A stretch of 64,000 nucleotides of DNA from an uncultured candidate division Zixibacteria bacterium (lineage in GTDB: Bacteria; Zixibacteria; MSB-5A5; UBA10806): the NCBI GenBank assembly GCA_963817915.1, contig CAWFQL010000017.1:160001-224000 (forward strand), read 5' to 3'. The position numbers were made by a program, and so were the translations under genes. This document shows positions 9,339 through 64,000 of this stretch, piece by piece (positions within the stretch are counted from its first letter, which is position 1; each line of letters starts with the position of its first letter). The notes under the pieces were generated by a model. It worked only from the letters and a program-made list of their open reading frames with translations. It was not told the origin of the DNA and made no database searches.

Positions 9339-11724
9339 TTATTCTTTTTTCTTCCAAATCCCTGTATACTTATAAATAACCCCGCCAATTACACCGCAGA
9401 AAAATATCAACCATGATAATTCGGTGACGGTTTTGCTGATATTATAATAGGGATTCTCGATTCTTAATTCCAGCTCATGATCGCCTGCGGGCAGTTCAAC
9501 TGCCATAAATGTGTAATCGCAGCGATAAATTGGCACCTCAGTTTTGCCCTCGAACGCTTTCCAATATGGGTACCAGTTATCCTGCAATGCCAAAAAACCC
9601 GGTGCCGATAGTCTGGCCTTAACTTTTATTCTGTCGGGGACTGTATTTTCCATATAAGCTGTGTCCCCCGGTATAGCTGCTGGCTTTACGATATTGGATT
9701 TCGGCTGTCTATCGATTACGATCTTATTTACAAAGTCAAATTTGGGATCGAAGACTGCTGATAACATCTGGTCTGGATCAGAAACTACCTGATAATCATA
9801 AATAATCCGCGCCCTATCCAATGCCGCCTTATTGCGATAAATCCTCACATCACCCGCAATATTGGCTAATTCGAATGATTGCACGCCATCCATTTGCTTT
9901 GTTAAGCGAGGGTCTTTTCCCAATAGATAGCGGGTATTGGTTAACGCTAATCCTGCGGGCTTGGTAAATAAATTAGTCAGGTTATTGCCGCCGATAAAAT
10001 CATTGTACCAGCGAAGCTGATTGCCATGATATCCGGCCGCCTCTTCCAATCCGAACTGCGCCAATTTATCATCGCTTGAGAGTGTTTGTGGAAATGGGAA
10101 ACACCTGAATGAACCGGGCTGATTTTTCAGGAATTCCGCCGCAGCCGGTTTGGCGAAATAGGGAGTGGGATCGACCGGTCTGATAAAGCGCATATCGTTG
10201 ATAAGCCAGTTGTCGATTACTATCATTATCAAAAATACTATTGCCATCGTGCTCACGGTGGTCTTTTTCCTCATAATCGACCAGAATATCACCAGGGTCG
10301 CCCCGATAATAAGCGCGCCTATAAAAAAGCCTACTGTAATATTAGGGAGATTAGTTTTAAGGATATCCAATTGTCCAATCTCAATCTTGGGGAAAAATAT
10401 CGACGTATAGATTCCCATGAATTTCAAACCGCCAATACTTGTCAATAGCCCCCCGAGCACGTATGCGCCGGCGGCGATAACCAGGCCCCAGAAGATTCTC
10501 ATAGTGGCCACGGTCTTCTTTATTTTGCTGATCTCGTCAACCGCCCTTGCCGCAAGAAATGCTACCGAAAAACAGAATAAGAACATTATAGTGGACGGCG
10601 CCCTGAATTTATCCACAAACGGCACGACATAATAAATGATCTTGAAGATGAAACCCCCGTCGCCGAGGGCGTAAAGCAACGCGAATATCGCTGTCCCCAG
10701 AAAAAAATAGGAATAACGATCGCGATAAATAAAAAGCCCGATTAATGCCAGCAGCAAAGCGGTAAATCCGGCGTATTCGCTATTTATCTTAAAATAGTTT
10801 TTGCCCCAATATGTCTGCTCAGAAGTCAATGGCGGATGGTTTTGCATACTGCTGTATCCGGAAAAACCCGGTACCAACTGCGTAAAAGCCTCTTCGGCAT
10901 GCAATGACCATGACGCCGCATATTCGTATCCTTTACCACCTTCGGCTCGCGGAGAATATTTCCTGACATAATCCTGTGTGGGTATAATCTGCACCGAAGA
11001 TAAGGCCAAGCCGAATATTAAAGCGGCGATAAAACCGATAAAAGGCATTGCAATTAATTTTATCTGTTTTTCCTTGATATAAATAGAAATTACACGAAGC
11101 AGAAAATATGCCCCTGTCAGCCACATGGCGAAATAGGCAAATTGCGGATGATTGGCCAAGACCAGACAGTCCGAATGTTATCGAAAATGGCCACCACCAG
11201 AATAGCTTACGCCTGTCGAATGCGATTTCCATCGTGAACAGAAGCAATGGCAACAGACTGGTTACATACATTCTGCCGTCGTGGCCGGCATACACCAATG
11301 ATACCAGGAATCCCGAAAGCATATAAGCTGTCGCGCCGACTACCGAAGCCCATTTCGAGAGCTTCATTTTCCGGAGATACAAATTCATGAAAACGCCAGC
11401 CAGGAATACGGTAATGACCAATTTATATCCCAATGCTTTTGTAATAGGCATTATGAATTGAAGGGCGGCCAATGGATAAAATGAATCCCCGTGCATGGCA
11501 TCCACAAATGGCAATCCGCCAAAAATATATGGGTTCCAGAGCGGTATGCGGTGAAATGTTTTTACAAAATCGGCATAAAAGGAACGAAACATGATACCGG
11601 CGCCTATCGTATCGGAGCCGAAAAGCATCTTATCCGAAAATATGAAGCCTGAAAATATCACAACGGTCAGCAGGAAAAAATATAGGTATGGCCATTGTTC
11701 CTTGATTAGTTTTTTAAAATCCAT
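9339..11724 (-). CDS. YfhO-family (GT-C-like) multi-pass membrane protein, split by +1 frameshift near 11167
   Basis: PLWNPYIFGGLPF, HPQFAY, FRAPS, C-terminal NWYPYWKA...AVELPAGDH. Confidence 0.8.
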
Positions 11725-11862
11725 TTTTCACCTTTTTATTTTAGATAATATTATCCTATTCATACTGGCATAGACAATATATGGTATAGGCCCTAATTTG
11801 GTCAATCGCAATAAGCCAAAAACTGCCTCGTTTGATTCGGCATCATTGTGGACAATTTTGGG

Positions 11863-11906
11863 AAAATAAAAAATCGGGCCTTTTACGCAAAAGCCCGATC
11901 TTTTTT
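11863..11906 (-). terminator. Intrinsic terminator (possibly bidirectional)
   Basis: ATCGGGC...GCCCGAT stem flanked by A- and T-tracts, just downstream of the DUF1579 gene. Confidence 0.7.
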
Positions 11907-11923
11907 CTAATGTTGACAGTAAT

Positions 11924-12530
11924 CTATTTCCTGCGGGTATAGGTAACTTCCATCGATTTATATTCCTTGCCATCGGGTCCCGGTTGGTACATTTCCAGCA
12001 CATGCTGATCGGGGCTGACCATCTTCATTACCATCCTGTAGGGCTCATCCTTTTGTCCCTGTCATGATATTATCGAACTTTCCGCTGAAATTAAATGTCT
12101 TGCCGTCCTTGTCAGCAGTACCGGCGCTAGTCATCATAGATGTAGACATTTCGTCCATCCACAGGGAATTGTAGGTCTGCTTGAAATTATCATAACCCGT
12201 AATGCTAATGCCTTTCATCGGCATCTGGCCCATCATTCCATTGACATTCTCCATGACATATCGTCCGCCTAAAATCCAACTGGCGTCGCTGGTGCCTTTT
12301 GATTCAGTGGCCGGAGCTTTAGGATCCATCCAGGATTTGTAATTAAGATCCCAGCTGCCAATCAATGGCTCCAATAATTTATGATTTGCTCCGGGTGTGC
12401 CATATTTGGCAAATAAGGCCATCATCGCTTCTTCAGGCGTCTGCTTTTTTTCCTGCGCTAACACCGTGATTCCCATCAATATTACGGCGGCCAATAAAAA
12501 CGCCGTAATGATAAGGCTTTGCTTTTTCAT
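11924..12530 (-). CDS. DUF1579-family exported protein, split by +1 frameshift near 12058
   Basis: Signal peptide, PGANHKLL..L.GSW, LGGRY, GYDN, WMDEMST; corrected C-terminus ...MEVTYTRRK* ends at 11924. Confidence 0.8.
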
Positions 12531-13452
12531 TGTTCCTCCATTGAAATCTTGACCTGAGTTTGGTGTTATTTATTGGATATTTTCCTCTCGGAAATTGTGT
12601 TAAATTCCGATTAGTAATCTTGTTTTCTCTCAAAAACTGCATGAACATTTTGGTTGCCTCCTGGCTGCCGCGGATATTCGGGTGAGAGTCGTTATCGGAA
12701 CGGCGATACTCGGATCGAAGCGTATTATTGCCATCCGCGAGCAAATCATAGAAATCAAAGACAAATAAATTGTTTAGGCCGGTCTCTTGTTTGTATTTAG
12801 CAAGAAAATCGTTTTTCACCCAATTGTTGAATTGCCGTGCGCGTGCAGCATTTTCAGGCGTAGTTTGATTCGGTACCAATGGCGGCGCGGTCACATAGAT
12901 AAAAATCTTGTTTGGATTTTTCGAAAATTGAGTCTTTAAATTCTCGAAAACGGCTTTATAATTCCATAGGGTTTTTGTCAATTCAGTCGGATTGCCGGGA
13001 GGATTGCCATCTGCGGTTATATTGCTATTGGGGTAGCATGATTTGAACATGACGATATCATTTTCTTTTCCATCGCTGTACAAAATATCGGGATGATAGT
13101 CGAATTTTATGATTTTGCCAAAATCATTTGAGAATTTGACAGTCCAATCATTCAGATCGGTTTTTTCGCCGATATCATCGCCGTAAGTGATATGATGTAC
13201 ACCGATTCCATTGGCCATCAGGCTATCGGAAAGACTGCCCTCGCTTAGCCAGTTATTGCCCACCGAATGGTGAATGAAAACCAGCCTTTTACCAAAGACC
13301 TTATTATAGTCGATCCTCGATTGATCCAGGCTCTGCTTGATTTGATTCAATTGATAATTGCCTTTGCGATATTTATAAGCAAATACCAATCCCACGATAT
13401 TTCCTATAATTGATATTATCAAAATTATTACCAAAACCCTTGCCATAATCAT
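12433..13452 (-). CDS. Membrane-anchored hypothetical protein with SGNH-hydrolase-like motifs (true 3' end possibly near 12600)
   Basis: N-terminal TM, FIHHSVG, MFKSCYP, DSHPN; the ~100 nt overlap with the next gene suggests read-through from an error. Confidence 0.55.
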   Translation of the reverse strand: MIMARVLVIILIISIIGNIVGLVFAYKYRKGNYQLNQIKQSLDQSRIDYNKVFGKRLVFIHHSVGNNWLSEGSLSDSLMANGIGVHHITYGDDIGEKTDLNDWTVKFSNDFGKIIKFDYHPDILYSDGKENDIVMFKSCYPNSNITADGNPPGNPTELTKTLWNYKAVFENLKTQFSKNPNKIFIYVTAPPLVPNQTTPENAARARQFNNWVKNDFLAKYKQETGLNNLFVFDFYDLLADGNNTLRSEYRRSDNDSHPNIRGSQEATKMFMQFLRENKITNRNLTQFPRGKYPINNTKLRSRFQWRNNEKAKPYHYGVFIGRRNIDGNHGVSAGKKADA

Positions 13453-17087: not shown

Positions 17088-18258
17088 ATGGAACAGCAAG
17101 AATTTAAGAAGATTTTAACGTCTCTTCGAGCCCACTTTGACGATTTAAGCTTCGGGTATGTTAACCAATGGAAATCGCGGGATTCATCCCGGCGAGTAAT
17201 TGGATTTCTTCCTATTTATATCCCTCGTGAAATTATCCATGCCTCGGGTATGCTGCCCGTTGGCATATTTGGAGCCGGAGACCGAATCCCTGTAGTCAGA
17301 GGCGATGCCTTTTTCCAATCGTATATATGTCATCTTCCCCGTACTGTAGTTGAATTGGCGTTAAATGGCAATTTCAAGAATTTTGACGGATTTATATTCC
17401 CATCGATTTGCGATGTAATTCGCAATCTTTCCGGAATTTTCAGGCTGAAATTCGGCGATAAATATGTTCGCTATCTCGATTTTCCACAAAATTTCGATCC
17501 TGAAGTGGGAGGAGTATTTTATCGCAAAATATTGGATCAGCTTGTCGAGGATTTGCACGCTCTAAACGGTATCAAAATAACCAATGAATCACTAAATCAA
17601 TCTATAAAGCTTTTCAATCGTAATCGACAGTCTGGTGATGGAATTAGATAGTATCCGAGTAAATAAGCCTCAATTAATGAGCGCGGTTGATTTCTACCTG
17701 ATCAGACGGGCCGGGAATATCCTTTCGGTAGAAGATCATAACGACTTGCTGGAAAAAATACTGTCATTGCTCGGAGATTCATATTCGGAACCTGAAGACA
17801 AGATTCGGGTCGTAATTACAGGATCATTTTGCGAACAGCCTCCGATCGGCCTGATTAAAACTATCGAGAACGCCGGCTGCTATATAGTCGATGATGATTT
17901 TCAGCTTGGATTAACCTGGTTTTCAAAGGATTTGCCGGATAACACAAATAACCCATTGGATACTCTCGTCCAAAGCTTCTTGTCAAATATCACATTTTCA
18001 GCGACTATATTTGAATCAGAAAACAATCGAGGAGATATCCTGGCTAAACGGGTAATTGAGAGAAAGGCCGATGGCGTAATTTTCTGCGCGCCGAGCTTCT
18101 GCGATCCCGCGCTCCTCGATCGGCCGATACTCGAACGGTCCATGGACAAACATCATATAAAGCATACAAGCTTTCAATATCACGAAAATCTCGGTCAGTT
18201 TCATGTTATCAAGGAACAAGCGGGAACTTTCGCCGATATGATTAAGCTTTGGGAGTAG
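17088..18258 (+). CDS. bcrC: Benzoyl-CoA reductase subunit C, split by +1 frameshift near 17631
   Basis: GDAFFQSYICH, FPSICDVIRNLSG, GSFCEQPP, APSFCDPALL, EQAGTFAD.IKLW. Confidence 0.9.
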
Positions 18259-52032: not shown

Positions 52033-53860
52033 TTATCGTTCTGCTGGCAATTGAAATCTGAAAATCATGAACGCCCACGCGTTCGCAACATAGGCAAGAT
52101 CGCCCGACGTGCTGATATCAACAGAATAGCTCGGAAGATCAAAATTCGCAATTTCGACCGGCGAGGTGGGTGTAGAAATATCAAGAATCCTTAAACCGGA
52201 GCTCGACGAGAATGCATATTTGCCTCTGACAGTCACGATATTAGTATTGCGGCCCAATTCGACCATGCCCACCAAACTTGGCTTTGAGGGATCTGAGATG
52301 TCGATCACCTGAAAACCGTAGAATTTGCCTGTTAAGTAGGCGTATTTATCATCTATAAATATGCCCCCGCCCCCTGCCTTAAGCCGTCCAACCAATACCG
52401 GAGTCGCGGGATTGGAAATATTCAAGACCTGCAACCCCCACCCGCCATCCGCGATATACGCGTAATCTCCAGAAATGGCAACTTCATGGATATATGGAAT
52501 TTTATAATCTGTTGTTAATTTGGGACTGGCAGGGTCAGCGATATTTATGATACTCAGGCAGGAATCCCCGGTCATAAAAATGTAATTCCCTGATACTTTC
52601 ACATAATGAGCCCTGCCTGATTTTGCATATGTTGCCAGCCAATCGAGGATTGGTTATTTCGGAAATATCTATAACTCGCAGGCCGGAATCGGCATCCGCC
52701 ATATATGCGTGAGTGCCCGATACAACCACATCACAGGGGCGACCATTAATCTTCTGGCTTCCCAATATTTTTGGGTTTGACGGTTGAGAGATATCAACCA
52801 CCCTTAAGCCGAAACTAAAATCCGCTAAATAGGCGTAGTTGCCGGATATGAATAATCCGCTTAAGCGTCCCGGAGTATCATATCTTCCTGCCAATGTCGG
52901 ATTCAAAGGATCTTTAATATTTATGACCTGTATGCCAGTTTCGAATTCTACAATAAATGCGTAGTTGTCTGAGGTTACAATTTTCCCAGGCTTACCAGGT
53001 AGGTCGCATTTACTCGCCAGCGACGGTTTGTCAGGATTGGATATATCTACCACACACATTCTGGTATTTTTAAAATCGGTTACATATGCGTAGTTGCCAT
53101 TTATACATACGCCCATGGCGCAGCCAATCGAATCGATCTTTCCAGCCAGGAAAGGAGCGGTAGGATTTGCGATATTGATAATACGAAGGCCATTAAATCC
53201 GTCAGCGATATAAACGTAATTGCCATTGACCAGCAAATTATCTGCATAATGCAGCGAATCAAAGCTACCCGCTAACGAAGGATTTGCGAAATTGGATAAA
53301 TCCATTATCCGAAGCCCGCTCCAATCGGCAATAAAAGCACATTTCCCCGCGACATAAATATCGGAGGCTGAGCCTCTTGTATCAAAGCCGCCAACTAATT
53401 TGGGACTGGAATTATCGGAAATATCTAACAGCTCTAATCCGGAATACCCCTCGGCCAGATAAGCGTAGCTGCTCGAAACAAATACCCCATTGACTCTAGC
53501 CCGAGCATGATAATTACTCTTTAGCACGGGATGAACCGGATCGGATACATTAAGGATAAAAAGCTGCGAATCCGCGGCGATATAAGCATGTTTCGCAAAA
53601 ACATATATTGCCTTGCCTTCTTTGGGGAGACAGGTTTGACTCAGAAGAGTTGGAGATGCGGGATTTGAAATATCCAGGACGACCAACCCATCCACGAACG
53701 CGCAATAAGCGTAGTTGCCCTCGATCTCCATGTCGCGAATACCGCTCCACAATGTCGATCCAACATATTCGATTGTTTGCCCAGATGCCGGGGCTCGCAG
53801 GATTGTTAAAAAAAGAATTATCGAAAAGAATTTCAGTAATTTTTTCGATAGGCCATTCAT
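52033..53860 (-). CDS. Secreted LVIVD-repeat (beta-propeller-like) protein, split by +1 frameshift near 52622
   Basis: Signal peptide and more than 12 repeats of GNYAY.A....GL.V.DIS.P..P. Confidence 0.85.
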
Positions 53861-57066: not shown

Positions 57067-58218
57067 ATGGAAATGTGGACAACTGAAAAACAAGAGCAAT
57101 TTCGATATAAAGTACGTGAATTTGCCAAGGGCGAGATTCAACCATTCAGCGCGCAGATGGATGTCGACCAGCATTTCCCCGAACAGCTGATCAAGAAATT
57201 GAATGACTTCGGCTTGCTGGGATTGGCGGTCAGCAAAGAATATGGCGGCACCTATATCGACACCATGTCCTATATTATTTCTGTCGAGGAGATGTCGCGG
57301 GTATGCGGCTCCACCGGAATTATCCTTGCGGCTCACAATTCGCTCGGATGTTGGCCGATTTACGCATTCGGGAATGAAGAGCAAAAGAAGAAATACCTGC
57401 CGGAAATCACGACCGGAGGGAAGCTGGCGGCATTTGGATTGACAGAGCCGGGAGCGGGCTCCGATGCCGGGGGCACAAAAACATTTGCGGAACAAGTGGC
57501 CGGCGGTTTTAAGGTCAATGGCACCAAATGTTGGATCACCAATGCCGGTTCGGCGGCTACTGTCGTTTTTACAGCTCGCACCTCGCATATTAATGATACC
57601 CACGCAATTTCATCGTTTATAATAAAATCTGGTACTAAGGGATTTGCCGCCGGGAAAAAAGAAAATAAACTAGGTCTCCGCGGCTCCGAAACCAGATTTT
57701 TGCATTTCGATGATTGTTTCGTGCCCGATGGTGATCTACTCGGCGAAGTCGGCCATGGTTTCAAGCAGTTTATGAAGACATTAGATGGCGGACGAATTTC
57801 TATCGGAGCCATGGCTTTGGGATTGGCTCAGGGGGCATACGAAGTTGCTTTGAAATTTGCGAAAACCCACCAGCAATTTGGAAAGCCGATATCAGATTTC
57901 CAGGCTATTGCATTCAAACTGGCCGACATGGCGACACAGATTCAGGCCGCGCGACATTTGGTTTATCATTCGGCGGCGTTGAAAGATGAGGGCAAACGAT
58001 CATTCTCTAAAGAATCCGCCATGGCAAAGCTGTACGCGTCCGAAGTAGGGAATTTCGTATGCAGTAATGCAATCGAAATTTTAGGGGCAGAAGGAGTGAG
58101 CCCTCGTTATCCGGTAGAACGTATGTTACGCGATGTCAAACTATGCGAAATAGGCGAAGGGACATCGGAAATTCAGCGGATAGTGATTTCTCGCCTTCTA
58201 TTAAAGGAAATAAGCTGA
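57067..58218 (+). CDS. Acyl-CoA dehydrogenase (isovaleryl-CoA dehydrogenase role inferred from context)
   Basis: FGLTEPGAGSDAG, KLGLRGS, GGRI, QFGKPI, IGEGTSEIQR. Confidence 0.88.
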   Translation: MEMWTTEKQEQFRYKVREFAKGEIQPFSAQMDVDQHFPEQLIKKLNDFGLLGLAVSKEYGGTYIDTMSYIISVEEMSRVCGSTGIILAAHNSLGCWPIYAFGNEEQKKKYLPEITTGGKLAAFGLTEPGAGSDAGGTKTFAEQVAGGFKVNGTKCWITNAGSAATVVFTARTSHINDTHAISSFIIKSGTKGFAAGKKENKLGLRGSETRFLHFDDCFVPDGDLLGEVGHGFKQFMKTLDGGRISIGAMALGLAQGAYEVALKFAKTHQQFGKPISDFQAIAFKLADMATQIQAARHLVYHSAALKDEGKRSFSKESAMAKLYASEVGNFVCSNAIEILGAEGVSPRYPVERMLRDVKLCEIGEGTSEIQRIVISRLLLKEIS

Positions 58219-58294
58219 AGGTTTTAAAATTATTAATACGATATGAAGTGTTCATTAAAATATAGAATTGATTGCGAAAGAGAGGTTCTCTAAG

Positions 58295-59350
58295 ATGGTT
58301 GGAATTGTCGGGTATGGAGCGTACATACCAAGATTTAGAATAAAAGTTGAAGAGATTGCCAAGACCTGGGGCGCGGACGCTCCCAGCTATAAAAAGGGTC
58401 TAATGCTTCAAGAGAAATCGGTCCCCGGACCAGATCAGGACACGATTACGATGGCAGTCGAGGCCACCAAGAACGCCTTAAAGCGCGCCGGTATCGACCC
58501 ATCGAAAATCGGAGCGGTATATGTCGGTTCTGAATCGCATCCCTACGCGGTTAAACCGTCCGGGACAACATTGGCCGAGGCTATTGGTGCGATTCCCGAT
58601 TGTCATTGCGCGGATTTAGAATTCGCATGCAAAGCCGGTTCGGAAGGCATGTTTATCGCCATGGGATTGGTTAAGGCCGGTGAAATCGAATACGGTCTTG
58701 GTGTAGGCGCGGATACGTCACAGGGCGCGCCTGGCGACGCCTTGGAATATTCAGCTTCCGCTGGAGCCGCGGCATATATTTTCGGCAATAAAAAAGAAGA
58801 GATAATCGCCGAATGTCATTTCACTCATTCATATATGACTGATACGCCGGATTTCTGGAGACGAGAATATCAATTCTATCCCCGTCACGCTTCCCGTTTC
58901 ACGGGCGAACCCGCGTATTTCAAGCATGTGCTTGGCTGTTCAGTGGCCCTAATGGATAAAGCTAAAATGAAGCCGAAAGATTTCGCGCATGTGGTTTTCC
59001 ATCAGCCCAACGGTAAATTCCCTATGAATGTCGGCTTGATGCAGGGATTCACCAAACAACAAATCGAAACCGGATGGCTTGCCCCGACATTGGGCAATAC
59101 TTATTCCGGCGCCTCGCCAATTGGATTGACTGCTATTCTAGATATCGCCAAGCCCGGCGATTGGATCATGATGGTCTCGTATGGCTCCGGCGCCGGTAGC
59201 GATGGTTTTGTCTGGAAAGTGACTGAAAGAATTAATGAAGTTCGCGATAAGGCGATCAGGACTCGCGCCATGCTCGATTCCAAACGGAAGAAATATCTCG
59301 ATTACGGGACATATGCCAAATTCAGAGGCAAAATCAAAAAGGCGCTATGA
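58295..59350 (+). CDS. Hydroxymethylglutaryl-CoA synthase, archaeal type
   Basis: GSESHPYAVKP, EFACKAG, DTPDFWRR, FHQPNGKFP, GNTYSG, SYGSGAGSD. Confidence 0.9.
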   Translation: MVGIVGYGAYIPRFRIKVEEIAKTWGADAPSYKKGLMLQEKSVPGPDQDTITMAVEATKNALKRAGIDPSKIGAVYVGSESHPYAVKPSGTTLAEAIGAIPDCHCADLEFACKAGSEGMFIAMGLVKAGEIEYGLGVGADTSQGAPGDALEYSASAGAAAYIFGNKKEEIIAECHFTHSYMTDTPDFWRREYQFYPRHASRFTGEPAYFKHVLGCSVALMDKAKMKPKDFAHVVFHQPNGKFPMNVGLMQGFTKQQIETGWLAPTLGNTYSGASPIGLTAILDIAKPGDWIMMVSYGSGAGSDGFVWKVTERINEVRDKAIRTRAMLDSKRKKYLDYGTYAKFRGKIKKAL

Positions 59351-59391
59351 TAGTTGAATTCAAAATGATAATGATTTCGGAGGAAATATAG

Positions 59392-60553
59392 ATGAGAGAA
59401 GTTGCAGTAATTGGCATTGGAATGACCAAATGGGGAGAGCTCTGGGAGAAATCGATCAGCGATCTAATCGCTGAAGCGGCTTTGCTCGCGCTCGATGACG
59501 CCCATATGACTAATGTCGATGCCATGTATATCGGCTGTATGTCGTCGGGGATTTTTACCGACCAGGAGCATCTTGGCATCAATAGGCCCGGATTATTCGG
59601 GGCTTTGTCCAACCCCCGGCATTAGAATTGAATCGGCTTGCGCGTCAGGCGGAGTGGCTTTCAGGACAGGTTATTTGCATGTGGCATCGGGAGCGTCGGA
59701 TGCAGTGATGGTAGTCGGCGTAGAGAAGATGACCGATGTCGATGGAGCAAGAGCTACATTCGCATTAGCTACAGCGGCAGATCAGGAATACGAAGTATAT
59801 AATGGGATAACATTCCCAGGGCTATATGCCATGATGGCTACCCATCATATGGCCAAATACGGCACTACCCGCGATCATTTGGCGCAAGTGGCAGTCAAAA
59901 ACCATCGCAATGGTAAATTGAATCCGCTGGCGCAATTCCAAATGGATGTGACAATTGACTCAGTTAAAAATTCGGTCATGGTTGCCGATCCGTTGACAAT
60001 CTTTGATTGTTCACCAGTCACCGACGGCTCTGCGGCGGTAATTTTAGTCCCGTTGGATAAGGCAAAACAGTTATCAAAGAAAAGAATAGTGAAGGTCACC
60101 GGCTCGGGCCATGCCAGCGATACTATCCAGTTGGCCCAGCGCGAAGATCTATCCTATATCAAATCCACCGAAGTCGCGGCCAAGCAGGCATTCGAGATGG
60201 CAAAACGGAAACCATCCGATATCAATTTCGCTGAAGTTCACGATTGCTTCACTATCGCCGAAATCATGGTCACTGAAGCTCTCGGCTTCTTTGAAAAGGG
60301 CAAAGGCGGATTCGCCGCGATGGAAGGCAAGACTGCTATCGATGGTCAGATTCCGGTCAATGCCAGCGGCGGATTGAAATCAAAGGGTCACCCGGTCGGC
60401 GCGACAGGAGTTGCCCAGATAGTGGAATTGACCAAGCAAATTCGCAACGAGGCCGATAAGGGCCGTCAGGTCAAAAATGCCAATATTGGTTTGGCGCAGA
60501 ATATGGGCGGAAGCGGCGCAAGCTCGGTAGTCCATATATTGGAGGGAGTATAA
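59392..60553 (+). CDS. Acetoacetyl-CoA thiolase, archaeal/SCP2 type, split by +1 frameshift near 59575
   Basis: [27 protein letters not shown]. Confidence 0.88.
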
Positions 60554-60554
60554 T

Positions 60555-60951
60555 ATGTCATCACCAAGATATTGGCGCTCCATGGCCGCAAAGATACCGT
60601 TTCGAGGCGGCCAAATGCAAAAAATGCGGTAAGGTTCATTTCCCTCCAAGATTGGTCTGCTCCGCATGTCATTCTCGCGAATTTGAATTAACACATCTAA
60701 ATTCTCAGGGGACAGTCGAAACATTTACTACGATCAGAGTGGCCCCAAGCGGATTCACCGACCAGGCGCCTTATTCTGTAGCGATTATCAATTTAGGCGA
60801 TGGTGTCAAAATACTGTGCCAGGTCGCCGACTGCGAACCTGAAGAGCTCAAAATCGGAATGAAGATCCGTCTCGAATTCCGCAAGCTCGGTATCGAGGGC
60901 GAAGCGGGAATTATCTATTATGGCTATAAATGCGTTCCGGAAATTTCATGA
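60555..60951 (+). CDS. DUF35 Zn-ribbon/OB-fold protein, split by +1 frameshift near 60585
   Basis: Corrected MSSPRYWRSMPQRYR...CKKCG..HFPPR.VC..C...IIYYGYK. Confidence 0.88.
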
Positions 60952-60973
60952 TTCGAAAGAATAAGGCGAATAC

Positions 60974-62581
60974 GTGTTCGAAATAGAATCGAAGATCGAT
61001 ACTTCCAGTCCTGACTTCGCAAAAAATACAGAAAAAATGAAAAGGGATGTTGCCCTGCTCAAGGAGCGTCTGGCTCTGATAGAGCAAGGCGGCCCTCCGA
61101 GCGCGCGCGAAAAACATCTGGCGCGCGGAAAGCTTCTCACTCGCGACCGGGTCATGAAGCTTTTCGATAAAAATACGCCCTTCCTCGAATTTTCGACATT
61201 GGCCGCGTACGATATGTATGACAACGAGGCCGCTGGCGCAGGTCTTATTTCCGGCGTGGGAATTGTCCATGGAAGGGAAGTCCTCGTAATCGCCAATGAT
61301 GCTACGGTCAAGGGTGGCACCTATTATCCCATGACAATCAAGAAGCATGTGCGCGCCCAGGAAATCGCCATGGATAATCGTCTGCCGTGCATTTATCTCG
61401 TCGATTCAGGCGGTGTCTTTTTGCCTCACCAAATGGATGTCTTCCCCGACAAAGGGCATTTCGGCACAATATTCTATAATCAGGCCAGAATGTCAGCGGC
61501 AGGGATTCCACAGATTGCAGTCGTTATGGGTTCATGCACCGCTGGCGGAGCGTATATGCCGGCCATGAGCGATGAAGCGGTCATTGTACGCAAGCAGGGT
61601 ACTATCTTTATCGGCGGGCCGCCATTGGTGAAGGCGGCTACCGGAGTCGATGTCACCGACGAGGAGCTTGGCGGAGCCGATGTCCATTGCAGAATTTCCG
61701 GCGTGGCGGATCATTACGCACTCAATGACGAACACGCGCTTCAGATAACCAGAAATATCGTTCAATGCCTGGGCCCGGCGAAGAAATTCGAAATAGGCCA
61801 AGGTGAATCAATAGAGCCAAAATATGACCCGAGCGAATTATACGGCGTTATGCCGAGCGATATCAGAAAGCCATTCGATATCCGGGAGATAATTGCCAGG
61901 GTTGTAGATGCCAGCGAATTTCATGAATTCAAAGAGCTATATGGTCAGACTCTTGTTTGCGGATTCGCGCGGATTATGGGTTATCCGGTTGGAATCATTG
62001 GCAATAACGGCGTGCTATTTTCCGAAAGCGCTCAAAAGGGCGCGCATTTTGTGGAGCTTTGCACATCGAGGAAGATTCCGTTGGTATTCTTGCAGAACGT
62101 CACCGGATTTATTGTCGGTAAAGAATATGAGCATAAAGGAATCGCACGCGATGGAGCTAAGATGGTTCACGCGGTTGCCAACGCCGATGTACCGCGATTT
62201 ACTATTATAGTGGGCGGCTCCTATGGTGCGGGAAATTATGCCATGTGCGGACGAGGCTATTACCCCAGATTTTTGTGGATGTGGCCTAACGCCCGAATCA
62301 GTGTCATGGGTGGCGAGCAAGCCGCCAATGTCCTGCTGAATGTTAAAATGAAGGCTCTTGAAGCCAAGGGCAAAACAATGACTAAAGAAGAGCAGGCGGA
62401 ATTCCAGGCTCCAATTCTCGAAAAATACGAAATAGAGGGTTCGCCTTATTTCAGCACAGCTCGTTTGTGGGATGATGGTATTATCGATCCCCTCGATACC
62501 CGCGCGGTATTAGGACTGGCAATATCAATATCATTGAATGCACCGATTCCCGATCAGCGATTCGGCGTTTTCAGAATGTAA
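60974..62581 (+). CDS. liuB: 3-methylcrotonyl-CoA carboxylase beta (carboxyltransferase) subunit
   Basis: [36 protein letters not shown]-terminal FGVFRM. Confidence 0.9.
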
Positions 62582-62595
62582 TTTAATCCATAATT

Positions 62596-63390
62596 ATGAT
62601 AACCTCTCAAAATTACCAGACGATCAAATTTGAAGATCGTAAACATGTCGCCTGGATTACATTGAATCGTCCGGATGTCAGAAACGCCTTCAATGCGGCT
62701 ATGATATCGGAGATGACAGATATATTCCGTCAGATCAATGAAAGCTCGGATTTAAGAGTCGTGGTATTGACTGGCGCCGAGCAATCATTTTGTGCGGGAG
62801 CCGATCTTAATTGGATGAAAGACGTTCTCGAATTCACATACGAGCAAAATCTCAATGATTCGTTGAAATTAGCCGAGATGTTCCATCTGATGTTTACTTG
62901 TCAACTCCCAACAATCGCCCTAGTTAACGGCCCCGCTATCGGCGGCGGCTGTGGTATGGCGGCTGTCTGCGATATAGTTATCGCATCGGAAAATGCTGTT
63001 TTTAGCTTGAGCGAAGTAAAGCTCGGCTTGGTGCCTGCTTGCATATCTCCCTATGTAATTCGACGAATGGGCGATAAAAATTGCAGAGAATATTTTTTGA
63101 CCGGCGAAAGGCTGACCGCAGAAAAAGCGTTGGCGGCGGGCCTAGCCAATAAGATAAGTGCACCGGATAAACTTTTCGATACGGCGCAAGTAATAATCGA
63201 TCAATTGCTATCAAGCGGCCCGAAGGCGTTGGCCTGGTGCAAGCAGATTATCGCCGAATCGCCGATATATCCGGAATCGGAAGTCGGCAATTATACAGCC
63301 GAAGTCATCGCCAAGCTCCGTATGGGAGACGAAGCCCAGGAGGGTATCCGCGCCTTCTTCGAAAAACGAAAACCGAAATGGTGTAAATAA
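62596..63390 (+). CDS. liuC: Methylglutaconyl-CoA hydratase-like crotonase
   Basis: NRPDVRNAF, FCAGADLNWM, LSEVKLGLVPACISPYV; located between the MCC subunits. Confidence 0.8.
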   Translation: MITSQNYQTIKFEDRKHVAWITLNRPDVRNAFNAAMISEMTDIFRQINESSDLRVVVLTGAEQSFCAGADLNWMKDVLEFTYEQNLNDSLKLAEMFHLMFTCQLPTIALVNGPAIGGGCGMAAVCDIVIASENAVFSLSEVKLGLVPACISPYVIRRMGDKNCREYFLTGERLTAEKALAAGLANKISAPDKLFDTAQVIIDQLLSSGPKALAWCKQIIAESPIYPESEVGNYTAEVIAKLRMGDEAQEGIRAFFEKRKPKWCK

Positions 63391-63404
63391 CAATGCATTA
63401 TTGC

Positions 63405-63498
63405 GTCATTGCGAGGAATCCGGCGGCAGCCGGACGACGAAGCAATCTGAAGGATGCACCCACAGATTGCGTCGCTCTTTTCAGTCGCTCGCAATGAC
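63405..63498. repeat. GTCATTGCGAG-type palindromic (REP-like) element
   Basis: GTCATTGCGAG...CTCGCAATGAC terminal inverted repeat with inner GCAATCTG/CAGATTGC arms. Confidence 0.75.
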
Positions 63499-63540
63499 AA
63501 GCAAGAGAATTTAAAGAATAATTTGGAACCAATGCATTAG

Positions 63541-64000
63541 ATGTTTAAGAAAATCCTGATAGCCAACAGAGGCGAAATCGCGGTTAGAGTCATCAAGGCC
63601 TGCCGCGAACTCGGAATCAAATCGGTAGCGGTCTATTCCGCCGCGGATAAGGCCGCGTTGCATGTTCAGTACGCCGATGAAGCAATATATATCGGCGAAG
63701 CGCCTGCCGCGAAAAGCTATCTGAATATTGATGCCATCATTAATGCTATCAAATCATCCGGCGCAGAAGCTGTCCATCCGGGATATGGATTTCTATCGGA
63801 AAATCATATCTTCGCCGAACGGTGCGAAAAAGAGGGAATAATATTTATTGGGCCGGATTCCAAATCAATGAAGCTTGTCGGTGATAAGGTAGCTTCGCGT
63901 ATCGTAACCGAAAAAGCCGGTATTCCGTTAATACCCGGCATGAAGCAGAAAAGCACGGATGTCAATGAATGCATGACGGCGGCTGAGAAAATCGGATTTC
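63541..64000 (+). CDS. Biotin carboxylase subunit (MCC alpha / AccC-like), 3' truncated by window
   Basis: Translated [25 protein letters not shown]...[10 protein letters not shown]; absent from ORF track because it has no stop in the window. Confidence 0.92.

Follow-up and report, generated by a model that had tools for sequence, protein, structure and literature searches.

What becomes of HMG-CoA in a bacterium that carries an archaeal-type HMG-CoA synthase (HMGS) beside genes resembling those for leucine breakdown? The question is raised by one end of the window, a 64,000-nucleotide stretch of DNA from an uncultured candidate division Zixibacteria bacterium. An initial annotation listed seven genes there: an acyl-CoA dehydrogenase (ACAD), archaeal-type HMGS, thiolase, a DUF35 protein, the beta subunit of 3-methylcrotonyl-CoA carboxylase (MCC), a methylglutaconyl-CoA hydratase (crotonase family) and a biotin carboxylase. 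All seven are present, in that order, on the + strand. The annotation regarded them as an HMG-CoA hub that either channels leucine carbon into isoprenoids or makes isovaleryl-CoA de novo. Here, we propose a reading absent from that annotation: the unit would lead from isovaleryl-CoA, a product of leucine or isovalerate, through HMG-CoA to acetyl-CoA without HMG-CoA lyase, the HMGS complex running in reverse and standing in for the lyase. We consider this reading about as likely to be right as wrong. Literature searches returned no description of an operon of this kind.

The biotin carboxylase gene runs off the window and ends at window-equivalent position 65041. It is followed by a gene for a biotin carboxyl carrier protein (BCCP), and a convergent efflux operon comes next, meaning that the unit consists of eight genes (Table 1). 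Gaps of 1–77 bases separate six of its seven gene pairs, with the DUF35 gene starting one base past the thiolase stop codon, and the eight genes are probably co-transcribed.

Table 1. Genes of the unit, with positions in the window and the principal supporting matches
Feature	Position	Strand	Support
Acyl-CoA dehydrogenase (ACAD)	57067..58218	+	Four ACAD Pfam domains
Archaeal-type HMG-CoA synthase (HMGS)	58295..59350	+	NF003274 525.7 bits; TIGR00748 520.3 bits
Archaeal/SCP2-type acetoacetyl-CoA thiolase, two frames	59392..60553	+	NF004720 458.9 bits
DUF35 scaffold protein (zinc ribbon and OB fold), two frames	60555..60951	+	PF01796 68.5 bits
Carboxyltransferase (beta) subunit, 3-methylcrotonyl-CoA carboxylase type	60974..62581	+	PF01039 507 bits
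Crotonase-family hydratase, candidate 3-methylglutaconyl-CoA hydratase	62596..63390	+	PF00378 206 bits
Biotin carboxylase, ATP-grasp part of split MCC alpha	63541..64000, runs off window	+	PF00289, PF02786 and PF02785 over two frames
BCCP, 179 aa, separate gene	65072–65611 (window-equivalent, past window end)		PF00364; ESMKMEN stretch

The HMGS scores above the cut-offs of both archaeal models (244 for NF003274, 353 for TIGR00748), compared with only 109.5 bits against the MvaS-type model TIGR01835 (cut-off 360.35). It aligns over 347 residues with the HMGS chain (6esq_I) in the archaeal complex of known structure (488.6 bits). Residues E80, C112, H236 and N268, which we take to be the catalytic tetrad, are invariant among 11 sequences. 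The mapping draws on the E-C-H-N motif as named in a passage of PMC12960953. The thiolase is above the NF004720 cut-off of 420 and matches 6esq_A with 287 bits; in alignment to 7yvy_A, it has the motifs ACAS, HDCF and GHP (CxS, HDxF and GHx as named in the same passage). The translated DUF35 protein has four cysteines (CKKCG...CSAC). Across the family of this genome, which has no HMG-CoA reductase, the trio of HMGS, thiolase and DUF35 genes shows dN of 0.08–0.17 with saturated dS, similar to MCC beta. The trio is under purifying selection in this family.

The other genes vary in how closely they can be named. The carboxyltransferase matches human (8j4z_J) and Pseudomonas aeruginosa (3u9r_B) MCC beta with 752 bits, geranyl-CoA carboxylase beta with 486 bits, and propionyl-CoA carboxylase types with ~270 bits or less; it is thus of the MCC beta type and is predicted to share its substrate. 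MCC alpha is usually one fused chain; here it is split between two genes, a biotin carboxylase with Biotin_carb_N, ATP-grasp and Biotin_carb_C domains, and the BCCP, a separate Biotin_lipoyl protein with an MKM motif. The initial annotation called the crotonase a methylglutaconyl-CoA hydratase. The family assignment holds, but the specific name does not follow from the best NCBIfam models, both of which are below cut-off: PRK07468 (252.6 bits, cut-off 350) and the gamma-carboxygeranoyl-CoA hydratase model PRK05674 (231.5 bits, cut-off 426). It is by position that the crotonase is a candidate 3-methylglutaconyl-CoA hydratase. Likewise, the ACAD is confirmed at the family level only, and is closer to butyryl-CoA than to isovaleryl-CoA dehydrogenases: its best PDB match is 5ol2_C (388 bits), followed by rat short-chain acyl-CoA dehydrogenase (SCAD; 344 bits), with isovaleryl-CoA dehydrogenase 4o5m at 262 bits. 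By sequence, it is of the short-chain/butyryl-CoA dehydrogenase type and a candidate isovaleryl-CoA dehydrogenase. In family relatives, an orthologue (76% identical) lies 5–8 kb away in a thiolase-Hbd-ACAD-ACAD cluster. For both ACAD and crotonase, we infer the substrates.

The annotation had named a lack of linkage in relatives as grounds for giving up the hub; a synteny survey found linkage instead. Within the class, 22 of 28 informative loci have MCC beta after HMGS-thiolase-DUF35, all on one strand; six more were left out because the contig ends too early to tell. Among the best 80 loci from other genomes, the same holds for 44 of 56 informative ones, from phyla that include, by record title, Zixibacteria, Aminicenantes, Eisenbacteria, Coatesbacteria and Glassbacteria, although both counts overstate independence since relatives are kin. 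This linkage of the trio to MCC and hydratase genes, seen in the majority of relatives and also in other phyla, supports the idea of an HMG-CoA hub. The ATP-grasp biotin carboxylase and BCCP accompany the block wherever loci reach that far. The neighbors that recur across 114 loci belong to beta-oxidation, with Hbd at 14 of the loci, ACAD at 14 and thiolase at 8, and no isoprenoid or lipid-synthesis genes were found among them.

No HMG-CoA lyase gene is found in the block, even when the downstream DNA is included, and 11 of the 14 family genomes have no lyase match. Strictly speaking, the genome under study is not free of lyase: a lyase-family gene, its middle part out of frame, lies on a separate contig (C16, 4284-5195) in a distinct operon. 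Beside it are a CaiB-type CoA-transferase gene and LeuC/LeuD-like genes, and its product may act on another substrate. In five genomes tested from other phyla, a lyase was found in none and HMG-CoA reductase in two; three records from other phyla titled “chromosome” have the full block, no reductase and no lyase. In two relatives without the trio (G040 and G032), the module of MCC beta, crotonase and biotin carboxylase ends in HMG-CoA lyase. AtuA takes their place in one of the 39 genomes with MCC beta; all the others have the trio or a lyase.

In the lyase-independent route that we propose, ACAD would oxidize isovaleryl-CoA to 3-methylcrotonyl-CoA, which the split biotin carboxylase, BCCP and MCC beta would carboxylate, at the expense of ATP, to 3-methylglutaconyl-CoA. 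The crotonase would hydrate this product to HMG-CoA. The DUF35-scaffolded HMGS and thiolase, running backwards, would then convert HMG-CoA and CoA to acetyl-CoA and acetoacetyl-CoA, and thiolysis of the latter would give two more acetyl-CoA, with all three thioesters kept. Several observations argue for this route. MCC beta is linked to the trio; the trio is constrained and its catalytic motifs are intact; the neighbors belong to beta-oxidation; and a lyase ends the same module in G040 and G032, as if trio and lyase occupied equivalent slots. With no reductase and mostly no lyase in the family, another fate for HMG-CoA is not apparent. ATP-grasp biotin carboxylase and BCCP are marks of ATP-driven carboxylases, biotin decarboxylases being without them, and their presence with the block favors the carboxylating direction. 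Other observations count against the route. HMGS is usually treated as irreversible, and the forward reaction is, to our knowledge, the sole tested function of the archaeal-type complex. In relatives G014, G028 and G039, which have the same block and HMG-CoA reductase and no match to DXR, the trio must run forwards to feed mevalonate, so the complex is not dedicated to cleavage. The C16 lyase-family gene, the likeness of the ACAD to reductive butyryl-CoA dehydrogenases, and the three genes of eight that are not intact as assembled weigh on the same side. Which way flux runs, and that the putative complex can be reversed, are both inferred.

Were the operon to collect leucine carbon and acetyl-CoA as HMG-CoA and pass it to the mevalonate pathway, a reductase would be needed. 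HMG-CoA reductase was not found in any of the 14 family genomes, including the one under study (also searched by tblastn) and its 13 relatives, whereas DXR is present in all 14. The genome itself, which is 93.9% complete with ~6% missing, has DXR, IspG and IspH, no mevalonate kinase above cut-off (best 22 bits, cut-off 163) and no diphosphomevalonate decarboxylase. The flow of leucine carbon into isoprenoids suggested by the initial annotation is not supported here, and we regard it as scarcely credible for this organism. The isoprenoid reading is possible in sister lineages that combine the block with a reductase, some of them (the three named above) without a DXR match; there, HMG-CoA could come from both modules. 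A different doubt concerns the integrity of the genes. Three breaks went unnoted in the initial annotation: the thiolase sequence switches frame once (59392-59577, then 59579-60553), as does the DUF35 gene (60555-60584, then 60586-60951), and the biotin carboxylase has one break, at 64048; located against intact relatives, each break is one extra base (+1), near 59578 and 60585 in the first two genes. Should these breaks be real, the three genes would be pseudogenes here. This would fit the excess of broken genes in the unit (3 of 8, compared with ~1 in 10 across the assembly) and the sequence context of the breaks, since those at 59578 and 64048 lie outside homopolymers and the G run at 60585 is just two bases long. 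However, 17 of 18 frame junctions examined outside the unit share the +1 type, indicating a systematic insertion error, and some genes elsewhere have three breaks each. Moreover, dN is the same for the broken thiolase (0.13–0.17) as for the intact MCC beta (0.13–0.15). Start codons and ribosome-binding sequences are undamaged, as are the catalytic motifs. We therefore read the breaks as assembly errors and consider decay very improbable.

Two further questions are the direction of flux and whether the unit works as a whole. The strongest competitor, though we think it unlikely, is a route in the opposite direction, in which acetyl-CoA would be built into HMG-CoA, dehydrated, decarboxylated by MCC in reverse and reduced by the Bcd-like ACAD to isovaleryl-CoA, to serve iso-branched lipids or, once reductively carboxylated, leucine, as a counterpart of the AIB pathway of Myxococcus. 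In its favor, the complex is known to work in the synthetic direction (passages of PMC12960953) and has kept its catalytic residues here, and Myxococcus makes isovaleryl-CoA from HMG-CoA through LiuC (PMC5389471, in part). The nearest matches of the ACAD are butyryl-CoA dehydrogenases and CarC of Etf complexes. In addition, the only HMGL-domain gene found in the genome is the lyase-like one, meaning that no isopropylmalate synthase was identified, and the IPMS-like gene of relatives was found to have no orthologue there. The de novo synthesis of isovaleryl-CoA put forward in the initial annotation is in this sense a live rival, but it lacks a decarboxylase of the AibA/AibB type: the genome has no gene of the CoA_trans family (PF01144), to which AibA and AibB presumably belong. 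MCC would have to take that role through ATP-yielding reversal of a biotin carboxylase, for which we know of no physiological case. Furthermore, a biotin carboxylase would be dispensable for a decarboxylase, yet it travels with the block; the homologous module in G040 and G032 ends in lyase and is clearly catabolic; and no lipid-synthesis neighbors were found. Complete reversal of the operon, from three acetyl-CoA through HMG-CoA and an ATP-yielding MCC decarboxylase to isovaleryl-CoA and on, by ferredoxin-dependent reductive carboxylation and transamination, to leucine without isopropylmalate synthase, would be a bolder version, and seems to us quite unlikely. Slightly less probable still is that two modules simply lie side by side, with the liu-type genes using a lyase or other exit encoded elsewhere and the trio doing a separate job, i.e., making HMG-CoA for an unknown product or merely supplying the acetoacetyl-CoA thiolase that ends leucine breakdown. 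The C16 lyase-family gene would suit this arrangement, as would the tolerance of relatives for inserted genes within the block and the separation of trio and MCC genes in families f3, f4 and f10. Cleavage of acetoacetyl-CoA is all that a Pseudomonas ACAT/HMGS-DUF35 complex does (passages of PMC12960953), but its HMGS tetrad is lost, whereas the tetrad is invariant here. Colinearity across several phyla, the short gaps in six of seven gene pairs, and the lack of both lyase and reductase in 11 of the 14 genomes of the family and in three genomes of other phyla assembled to chromosome level also argue against two independent modules.

If the complex does cleave HMG-CoA, an enzyme pair supposed to be a one-way entry to isoprenoids would be reversible in vivo, much as citrate synthase is in the reversed oxidative TCA cycle. 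Breakdown of leucine or isovalerate would end in three acetyl-CoA without any free acetoacetate in need of re-activation, which for anaerobes short of energy is a real saving. Cleavage would also provide a role for many bacterial HMGS/ACAT/DUF35 loci now without an assigned one, and would correct automatic annotation in several uncultured sediment phyla, where such an HMGS is read as “mevalonate pathway.” If the opposite direction is correct, the unit would represent a second, unrelated route to isovaleryl-CoA.

Pseudomonas liu clusters serve leucine and isovalerate utilization and end in HMG-CoA lyase. Like them, the unit combines an MCC-beta-type carboxyltransferase, biotin carboxylase/BCCP, crotonase and ACAD in one block; unlike them, it has the archaeal-type trio in place of the lyase, a split MCC alpha, and an ACAD that resembles Bcd/SCAD more than IVD. 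Relatives G040 and G032 have the classical arrangement, in which the lyase comes last. An isovalerate-induced cluster of Desulfococcus multivorans includes Mcc, EchA2 and HmgL (PMC5109826, in part). The archaeal thiolase/HMGS/DUF35 complex was described in 2018 (via passages of PMC12960953). Here, too, three adjacent genes encode the same three families, with E-C-H-N, CxS, HDxF and GHx kept and a DUF35 protein with zinc ribbon and OB fold. In contrast to the archaeal system, the host is bacterial and has no HMG-CoA reductase, so the product is barred from the mevalonate pathway; the trio shares an operon with MCC, crotonase and ACAD; and the putative complex is proposed to run in reverse. Passages of PMC12960953 report a survey of 1,030 bacterial HMGS/ACAT/DUF35 loci, of which 1,001 are without adjacent secondary-metabolism genes; as in the present genome, the three-gene module occurs in bacteria relying on the MEP pathway. 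The words “carboxylase,” “isovaleryl” and “methylglutaconyl” do not occur in the main text of that paper. In the characterized bacterial examples (MucABC, PhlABC and the P. fluorescens complex), according to the same passages, the HMGS tetrad is lost and no HMG-CoA is made, in contrast to the invariant tetrad here. Lastly, the AIB pathway of Myxococcus xanthus consists of MvaS, LiuC, AibA/AibB and AibC (PMC5389471 and PMC7756340, each in part). The present unit differs from it in having an archaeal-type rather than MvaS-type HMGS, a full ATP-dependent carboxylase in place of a CoA_trans-family decarboxylase, none of which was found, and no TetR regulator in the block. In both systems, however, HMGS is tied genetically to enzymes interconverting HMG-CoA, 3-methylglutaconyl-CoA and C5 acyl-CoAs.

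The gene order proposed in the initial annotation, from an acyl-CoA dehydrogenase (ACAD) to a biotin carboxylase, is confirmed in the window (C17:160001-224000 of the studied genome), with frame breaks, probably artefactual, in three of the genes. The series continues past the end of the window to a separate biotin carrier, beyond which an outer-membrane efflux protein, an MFS pump, a membrane-fusion protein, and a MarR regulator are encoded convergently. This gives a unit of eight genes. Gaps between genes range from 1 to 77 bases, with the exception of 150 bases ahead of the biotin carboxylase gene. With consensus sequences that may not fit Zixibacteria, a promoter scan returned 23 promoter-like sites where 15.1 ± 4.6 were expected, and a terminator scan between the operon genes found no clear intergenic terminator. 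We infer that the genes are co-transcribed.

Genes of the operon, in window positions or, past the window's end, window-equivalent positions
Product	Position	Strand	Model match
Acyl-CoA dehydrogenase	57067-58218	+	
Archaeal-type HMG-CoA synthase	58295-59350	+	NF003274, 525.7 bits (cut-off 244)
Archaeal/SCP2-type thiolase	59392-60553	+	
DUF35 protein	60555-60951	+	
Carboxyltransferase	60974-62581	+	
Crotonase	62596-63390	+	
Biotin carboxylase	63541, past window end, to window-equivalent 65041	+	
Separate biotin carrier (179 residues, ESMKMEN stretch)	window-equivalent 65072-65611		

Just downstream of the window, a plus-strand gene (L014 14075-17194; window-equivalent 76075-79194) encodes a multihaem cytochrome of 1,039 residues, in which the doubled CXXCH motif matches 21 times; this suggests extracellular or metal respiration. 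Within the window, a long plus-strand cluster (17046-38463) encodes four HGD-D-type subunits (one gene split at 17635-17651), two BcrAD/BadFG-type ATPases, an AMP-forming ligase, two crotonases, an SDR, two thiolases, and a three-subunit molybdenum hydroxylase. The cluster is similar to gene sets for anaerobic aromatic acyl-CoA reduction and ring opening.

The thiolase, DUF35, and biotin carboxylase genes each occupy two frames, with one surplus base relative to intact relatives (near 59578, 60585, and 64048, respectively). The rate of such breaks was estimated from 457 open frames in 20 stretches of 20 kb, spaced evenly along G006, a relative assembled as one contig. An orthologue-like match in the studied genome (G000) was found for 162 of these, and 18 of the 162 were split, or about 15 once a repeat-domain case and two antisense shadows are set aside, i.e., roughly one gene in ten. 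This estimate supersedes a smaller first sample, in which 3 of the 47 non-operon genes were frameshifted, too small a set to be useful. Split genes include C17:555602-557542 and C12:243273-244457, and some genes outside the operon carry three breaks apiece. Three breaks in eight operon genes exceed the number expected from a rate of one in ten, and we assign a small probability to the operon genuinely decaying, with real frame breaks. Against decay, 17 of the 18 frame junctions examined elsewhere in the genome share the +1 type of the operon's three breaks, the broken thiolase has the same dN versus relatives (0.13-0.17) as the intact carboxyltransferase (0.13-0.15), and the catalytic motifs are kept. 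Because of these three observations, we ascribe the operon breaks to bases inserted systematically in error during assembly, and they are probably artefacts. Gene calls throughout this genome, that of IspH among them, would be subject to the same error. At 52033-53860 of the window (minus strand), LVIVD repeats make up each of two open frames that overlap; these are probably parts of a single exported beta-propeller gene interrupted by another frame break.

The individual parts vary in how closely they match characterised enzymes. The HMG-CoA synthase (HMGS) aligns over its full length with HMGS from the solved complex of Methanothermococcus thermolithotrophicus (488.6 bits); Glu80, Cys112, His236, and Asn268 do not vary across 11 aligned sequences of the class, and the thiolase retains ACAS, HDCF, and GHP. 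In PMC12960953, HMG-CoA synthesis is described as requiring an E-C-H-N tetrad, CxS, HDxF, and GHx, and the tetrad as lost in characterised bacterial versions of the HMGS-thiolase-DUF35 trio. Unlike in those versions, the tetrad has not been lost from the HMGS studied here. The carboxyltransferase scores 752 bits to the human and P. aeruginosa beta subunits of methylcrotonyl-CoA carboxylase (MCC), versus 486 bits to the geranyl-CoA carboxylase beta subunit. The crotonase scores under the cut-offs of its best models, so its substrate is assigned from gene position. The ACAD scores 388 bits to 5ol2_C, of the butyryl-CoA dehydrogenase type, versus 262 bits to isovaleryl-CoA dehydrogenases. In four relatives of the same family (G001, G003, G005, and G013), a 76-77%-identical ACAD orthologue lies 5-8 kb from the block; the ACAD's location directly before HMGS is therefore particular to the studied genome and a few others. 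The orthologue's neighbours, in the three relatives scanned (G001, G003, and G013), include a 3-hydroxyacyl-CoA dehydrogenase and another ACAD, joined in G001 and G003 by a thiolase.

Linkage between the trio and the MCC genes was examined by tblastn of the studied genome's proteins against 34 loci around the HMGS genes of class relatives. HMGS, thiolase, DUF35, and MCC beta follow one another on one strand in 22 of the 34 loci, with crotonase, biotin carboxylase, and biotin carrier after them where the locus extends. Six loci reach a contig edge before the region after the trio and are uninformative. In two loci (family f6) the MCC set is next door, on the opposite strand in one, and in four (families f3, f4, and f10) the trio is by itself. 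A 72-74%-identical MCC beta lies on a separate contig in f3 and f4, and a 60%-identical one adjoins a lyase gene in f10. A wider scan, with one genome per species, found at least 595 relatives; among the best 80 loci, at least seven of which are on the same contigs as class-relative loci, 56 have at least 2 kb beyond DUF35, and MCC beta is colinear within 4.5 kb in 44 of these 56. By record titles, the best 80 come from Zixibacteria, Aminicenantes/Acidobacteriota, Eisenbacteria, Coatesbacteria, Glassbacteria, and others; the block is widespread in uncultured phyla. The trio and the liu-like genes are thus linked in relatives, in support of the HMG-CoA hub suggested by the initial annotation. 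The block's order survives insertions in several relatives, with unrelated small genes lying between operon genes at L030 2306-3115, L038 11079-11912, L045 7689-8270, L047 4367-4975, L039 12717-15115, and L037 7481-8179. We take these to be transposase-, methyltransferase-, nuclease-, and DinB-like by their motifs, and they were dropped as pathway parts.

Two products were suggested for such a hub, the first being isoprenoids made from leucine carbon. Among 41 genomes (the studied genome and 40 class relatives), 36 have a strong HMGS match; the closest named HMGS relatives among the matches listed are Zixibacteria MAGs. HMG-CoA reductase is found in 14 of the 41 genomes and in 0 of the 14 of the studied genome's own family, while DXR is found in 35 of the 41 and in all 14 of the family. 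The studied genome is 93.9% complete, hence absences from it are given as "not found". A tblastn search of it with a relative's reductase gave no match, mevalonate kinase scored at most 22 bits (cut-off 163), and diphosphomevalonate decarboxylase was not found; IspG and IspH are present. Since no reductase was found anywhere in the family, a chance miss is unlikely, and the isoprenoid route is not supported for this genome. In the family, dN of HMGS, thiolase, and MCC beta is 0.08-0.17, with synonymous sites saturated and dN/dS 0.04-0.07 where computable. Such low dN in a family without reductase means that the trio is no relic of a lost mevalonate pathway. In sister lineages with reductase, some without a DXR match (G014, G028, and G039), it is possible that the trio feeds mevalonate. 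One such reductase lies in an open frame of ~770 residues (L017, G015:C19, 1402-3708), and 13 other relatives have frames of the same size class; by motif, the frame's C-terminal half resembles a kinase of the GHMP (mevalonate) type.

HMG-CoA lyase, the usual exit of the liu pathway, is also scarce. The lyase model NF004283 matches in 12 of the 41 genomes, 11 above cut-off, and within the family only in the studied genome (a 95.8-bit fragment), G008, and G012. The trio is present with both reductase and lyase absent in 11 of the 14 family genomes. Five genomes of other lineages with the full block have lyase in 0/5, reductase in 2/5, and DXR in 5/5, and both lyase and reductase are missing from three records titled "chromosome" (by title Coatesbacteria, Aminicenantes, and Eiseniibacteriota). 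In genomes without either enzyme, the only recognisable enzymes touching HMG-CoA are the complex and the crotonase, which points to an unbroken path linking acetyl-CoA with the C5 acyl-CoAs.

The studied genome is a partial exception. Its lyase-family gene (C16:4284-5195, minus strand) matches the G008 lyase well at both ends, with the middle out of frame, and heads a minus-strand operon (C16:1231-5195, L163) with a CaiB-type CoA-transferase and LeuC-like and LeuD-like subunits. The transferase, 87% identical to that of G008, carries a frame break; an IPMS-like identity for this broken gene (C16:3075-4266) was rejected. R-citramalyl-CoA lyase of Chloroflexus is of the same family and likewise adjoins a CaiB-type transferase. 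The operon's role may lie in a citramalate or hydroxy-dicarboxylate route and not in the last step of leucine breakdown. The lyase-like gene was the sole HMGL-domain gene found in the studied genome, hence no isopropylmalate or citramalate synthase, and no orthologue of the relatives' VOR-beta/IPMS-like/LeuC-like locus turned up. The missing isopropylmalate synthase reflects either an assembly gap or a lack of leucine synthesis by the usual route.

The most likely function of the trio-MCC block is a lyase-independent link, in which the block would connect leucine or isovalerate with acetyl-CoA. Genomes with other gene combinations bear on the direction of this link. G040 and G032, without the trio, have the same module of MCC beta, crotonase, and biotin carboxylase ending in HMG-CoA lyase. 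G030, the only one of the 41 genomes with MCC beta but neither trio nor lyase, is also the only one with AtuA, whose gene (L164, G030:C2:271000-290900, 11266-13137, minus strand) immediately precedes MCC beta, crotonase, biotin carboxylase, and biotin carrier, a position hinting that HMG-CoA-type intermediates may be substrates of this AtuA-family protein. Each of the 39 genomes carrying MCC beta also has the trio, the lyase, or AtuA, if not more than one of them; thus, the trio occupies the place of the HMG-CoA-cleaving step.

We put the chance that this link runs in the catabolic direction at about even, and consider its biosynthetic reverse, from acetyl-CoA to isovaleryl-CoA, the second product suggested initially, to be unlikely. 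Biotin carboxylase, an ATP-grasp enzyme, and the biotin carrier are kept in every block that reaches that far. The two together mark ATP-consuming carboxylases, and to our knowledge the carboxylase component is absent from biotin-dependent decarboxylases. No CoA_trans-family gene was found in the studied genome, so it has neither an AibA/AibB-type decarboxylase nor a classical acetoacetate CoA-transferase, both of which we assign to that family. Neighbouring genes also bear on the direction. Open frames from 114 loci (1,421 in all) were clustered, and the 16 commonest families that were scanned include acyl-CoA-breakdown genes (3-hydroxyacyl-CoA dehydrogenase in 14 loci; ACADs in 14; classical thiolase in 8), along with a biotin/lipoate ligase-family gene (in 9) and a methylmalonyl-CoA-mutase-family gene (in 8), and no isoprenoid or fatty-acid-synthesis genes. 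Nor did they include an aminotransferase, 2-oxoacid oxidoreductase, or FabH gene to decide the direction. On the other side, the ACAD resembles reductive enzymes, a point against the catabolic direction, and we know of the archaeal-type complex only in the forward reaction. In PMC12960953, this reaction is described as one in which a favourable HMGS step is coupled to a thiolase step that is unfavourable. Taken together, the coupled steps would be much nearer equilibrium than HMGS alone, so reversal within the channelling complex is plausible. In genomes with reductase and without a DXR match, the complex must run forwards.

Four known systems are closest to a route between leucine or isovalerate and acetyl-CoA that needs no lyase. 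The archaeal HMGS complex has the same parts as the trio and differs in pathway and proposed direction. Clusters for leucine or isovalerate breakdown that end in lyase include the one that isovalerate induces in Desulfococcus multivorans, which contains Mcc, EchA2, and HmgL (PMC5109826). The myxobacterial AIB route (PMC5389471 and PMC7756340) runs in reverse and employs the AibA/AibB decarboxylase (PMC5389471). Lastly, PMC12960953 counts 1,030 bacterial HMGS/ACAT/DUF35 loci, 1,001 of them without secondary-metabolism neighbours or an assigned role; the words "carboxylase", "isovaleryl", and "methylglutaconyl" do not occur in its main text, and a literature search of open main texts found no publication tying the trio to MCC. 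Compared with these systems, the route served by the trio-MCC block is most likely a variant of a known pathway.
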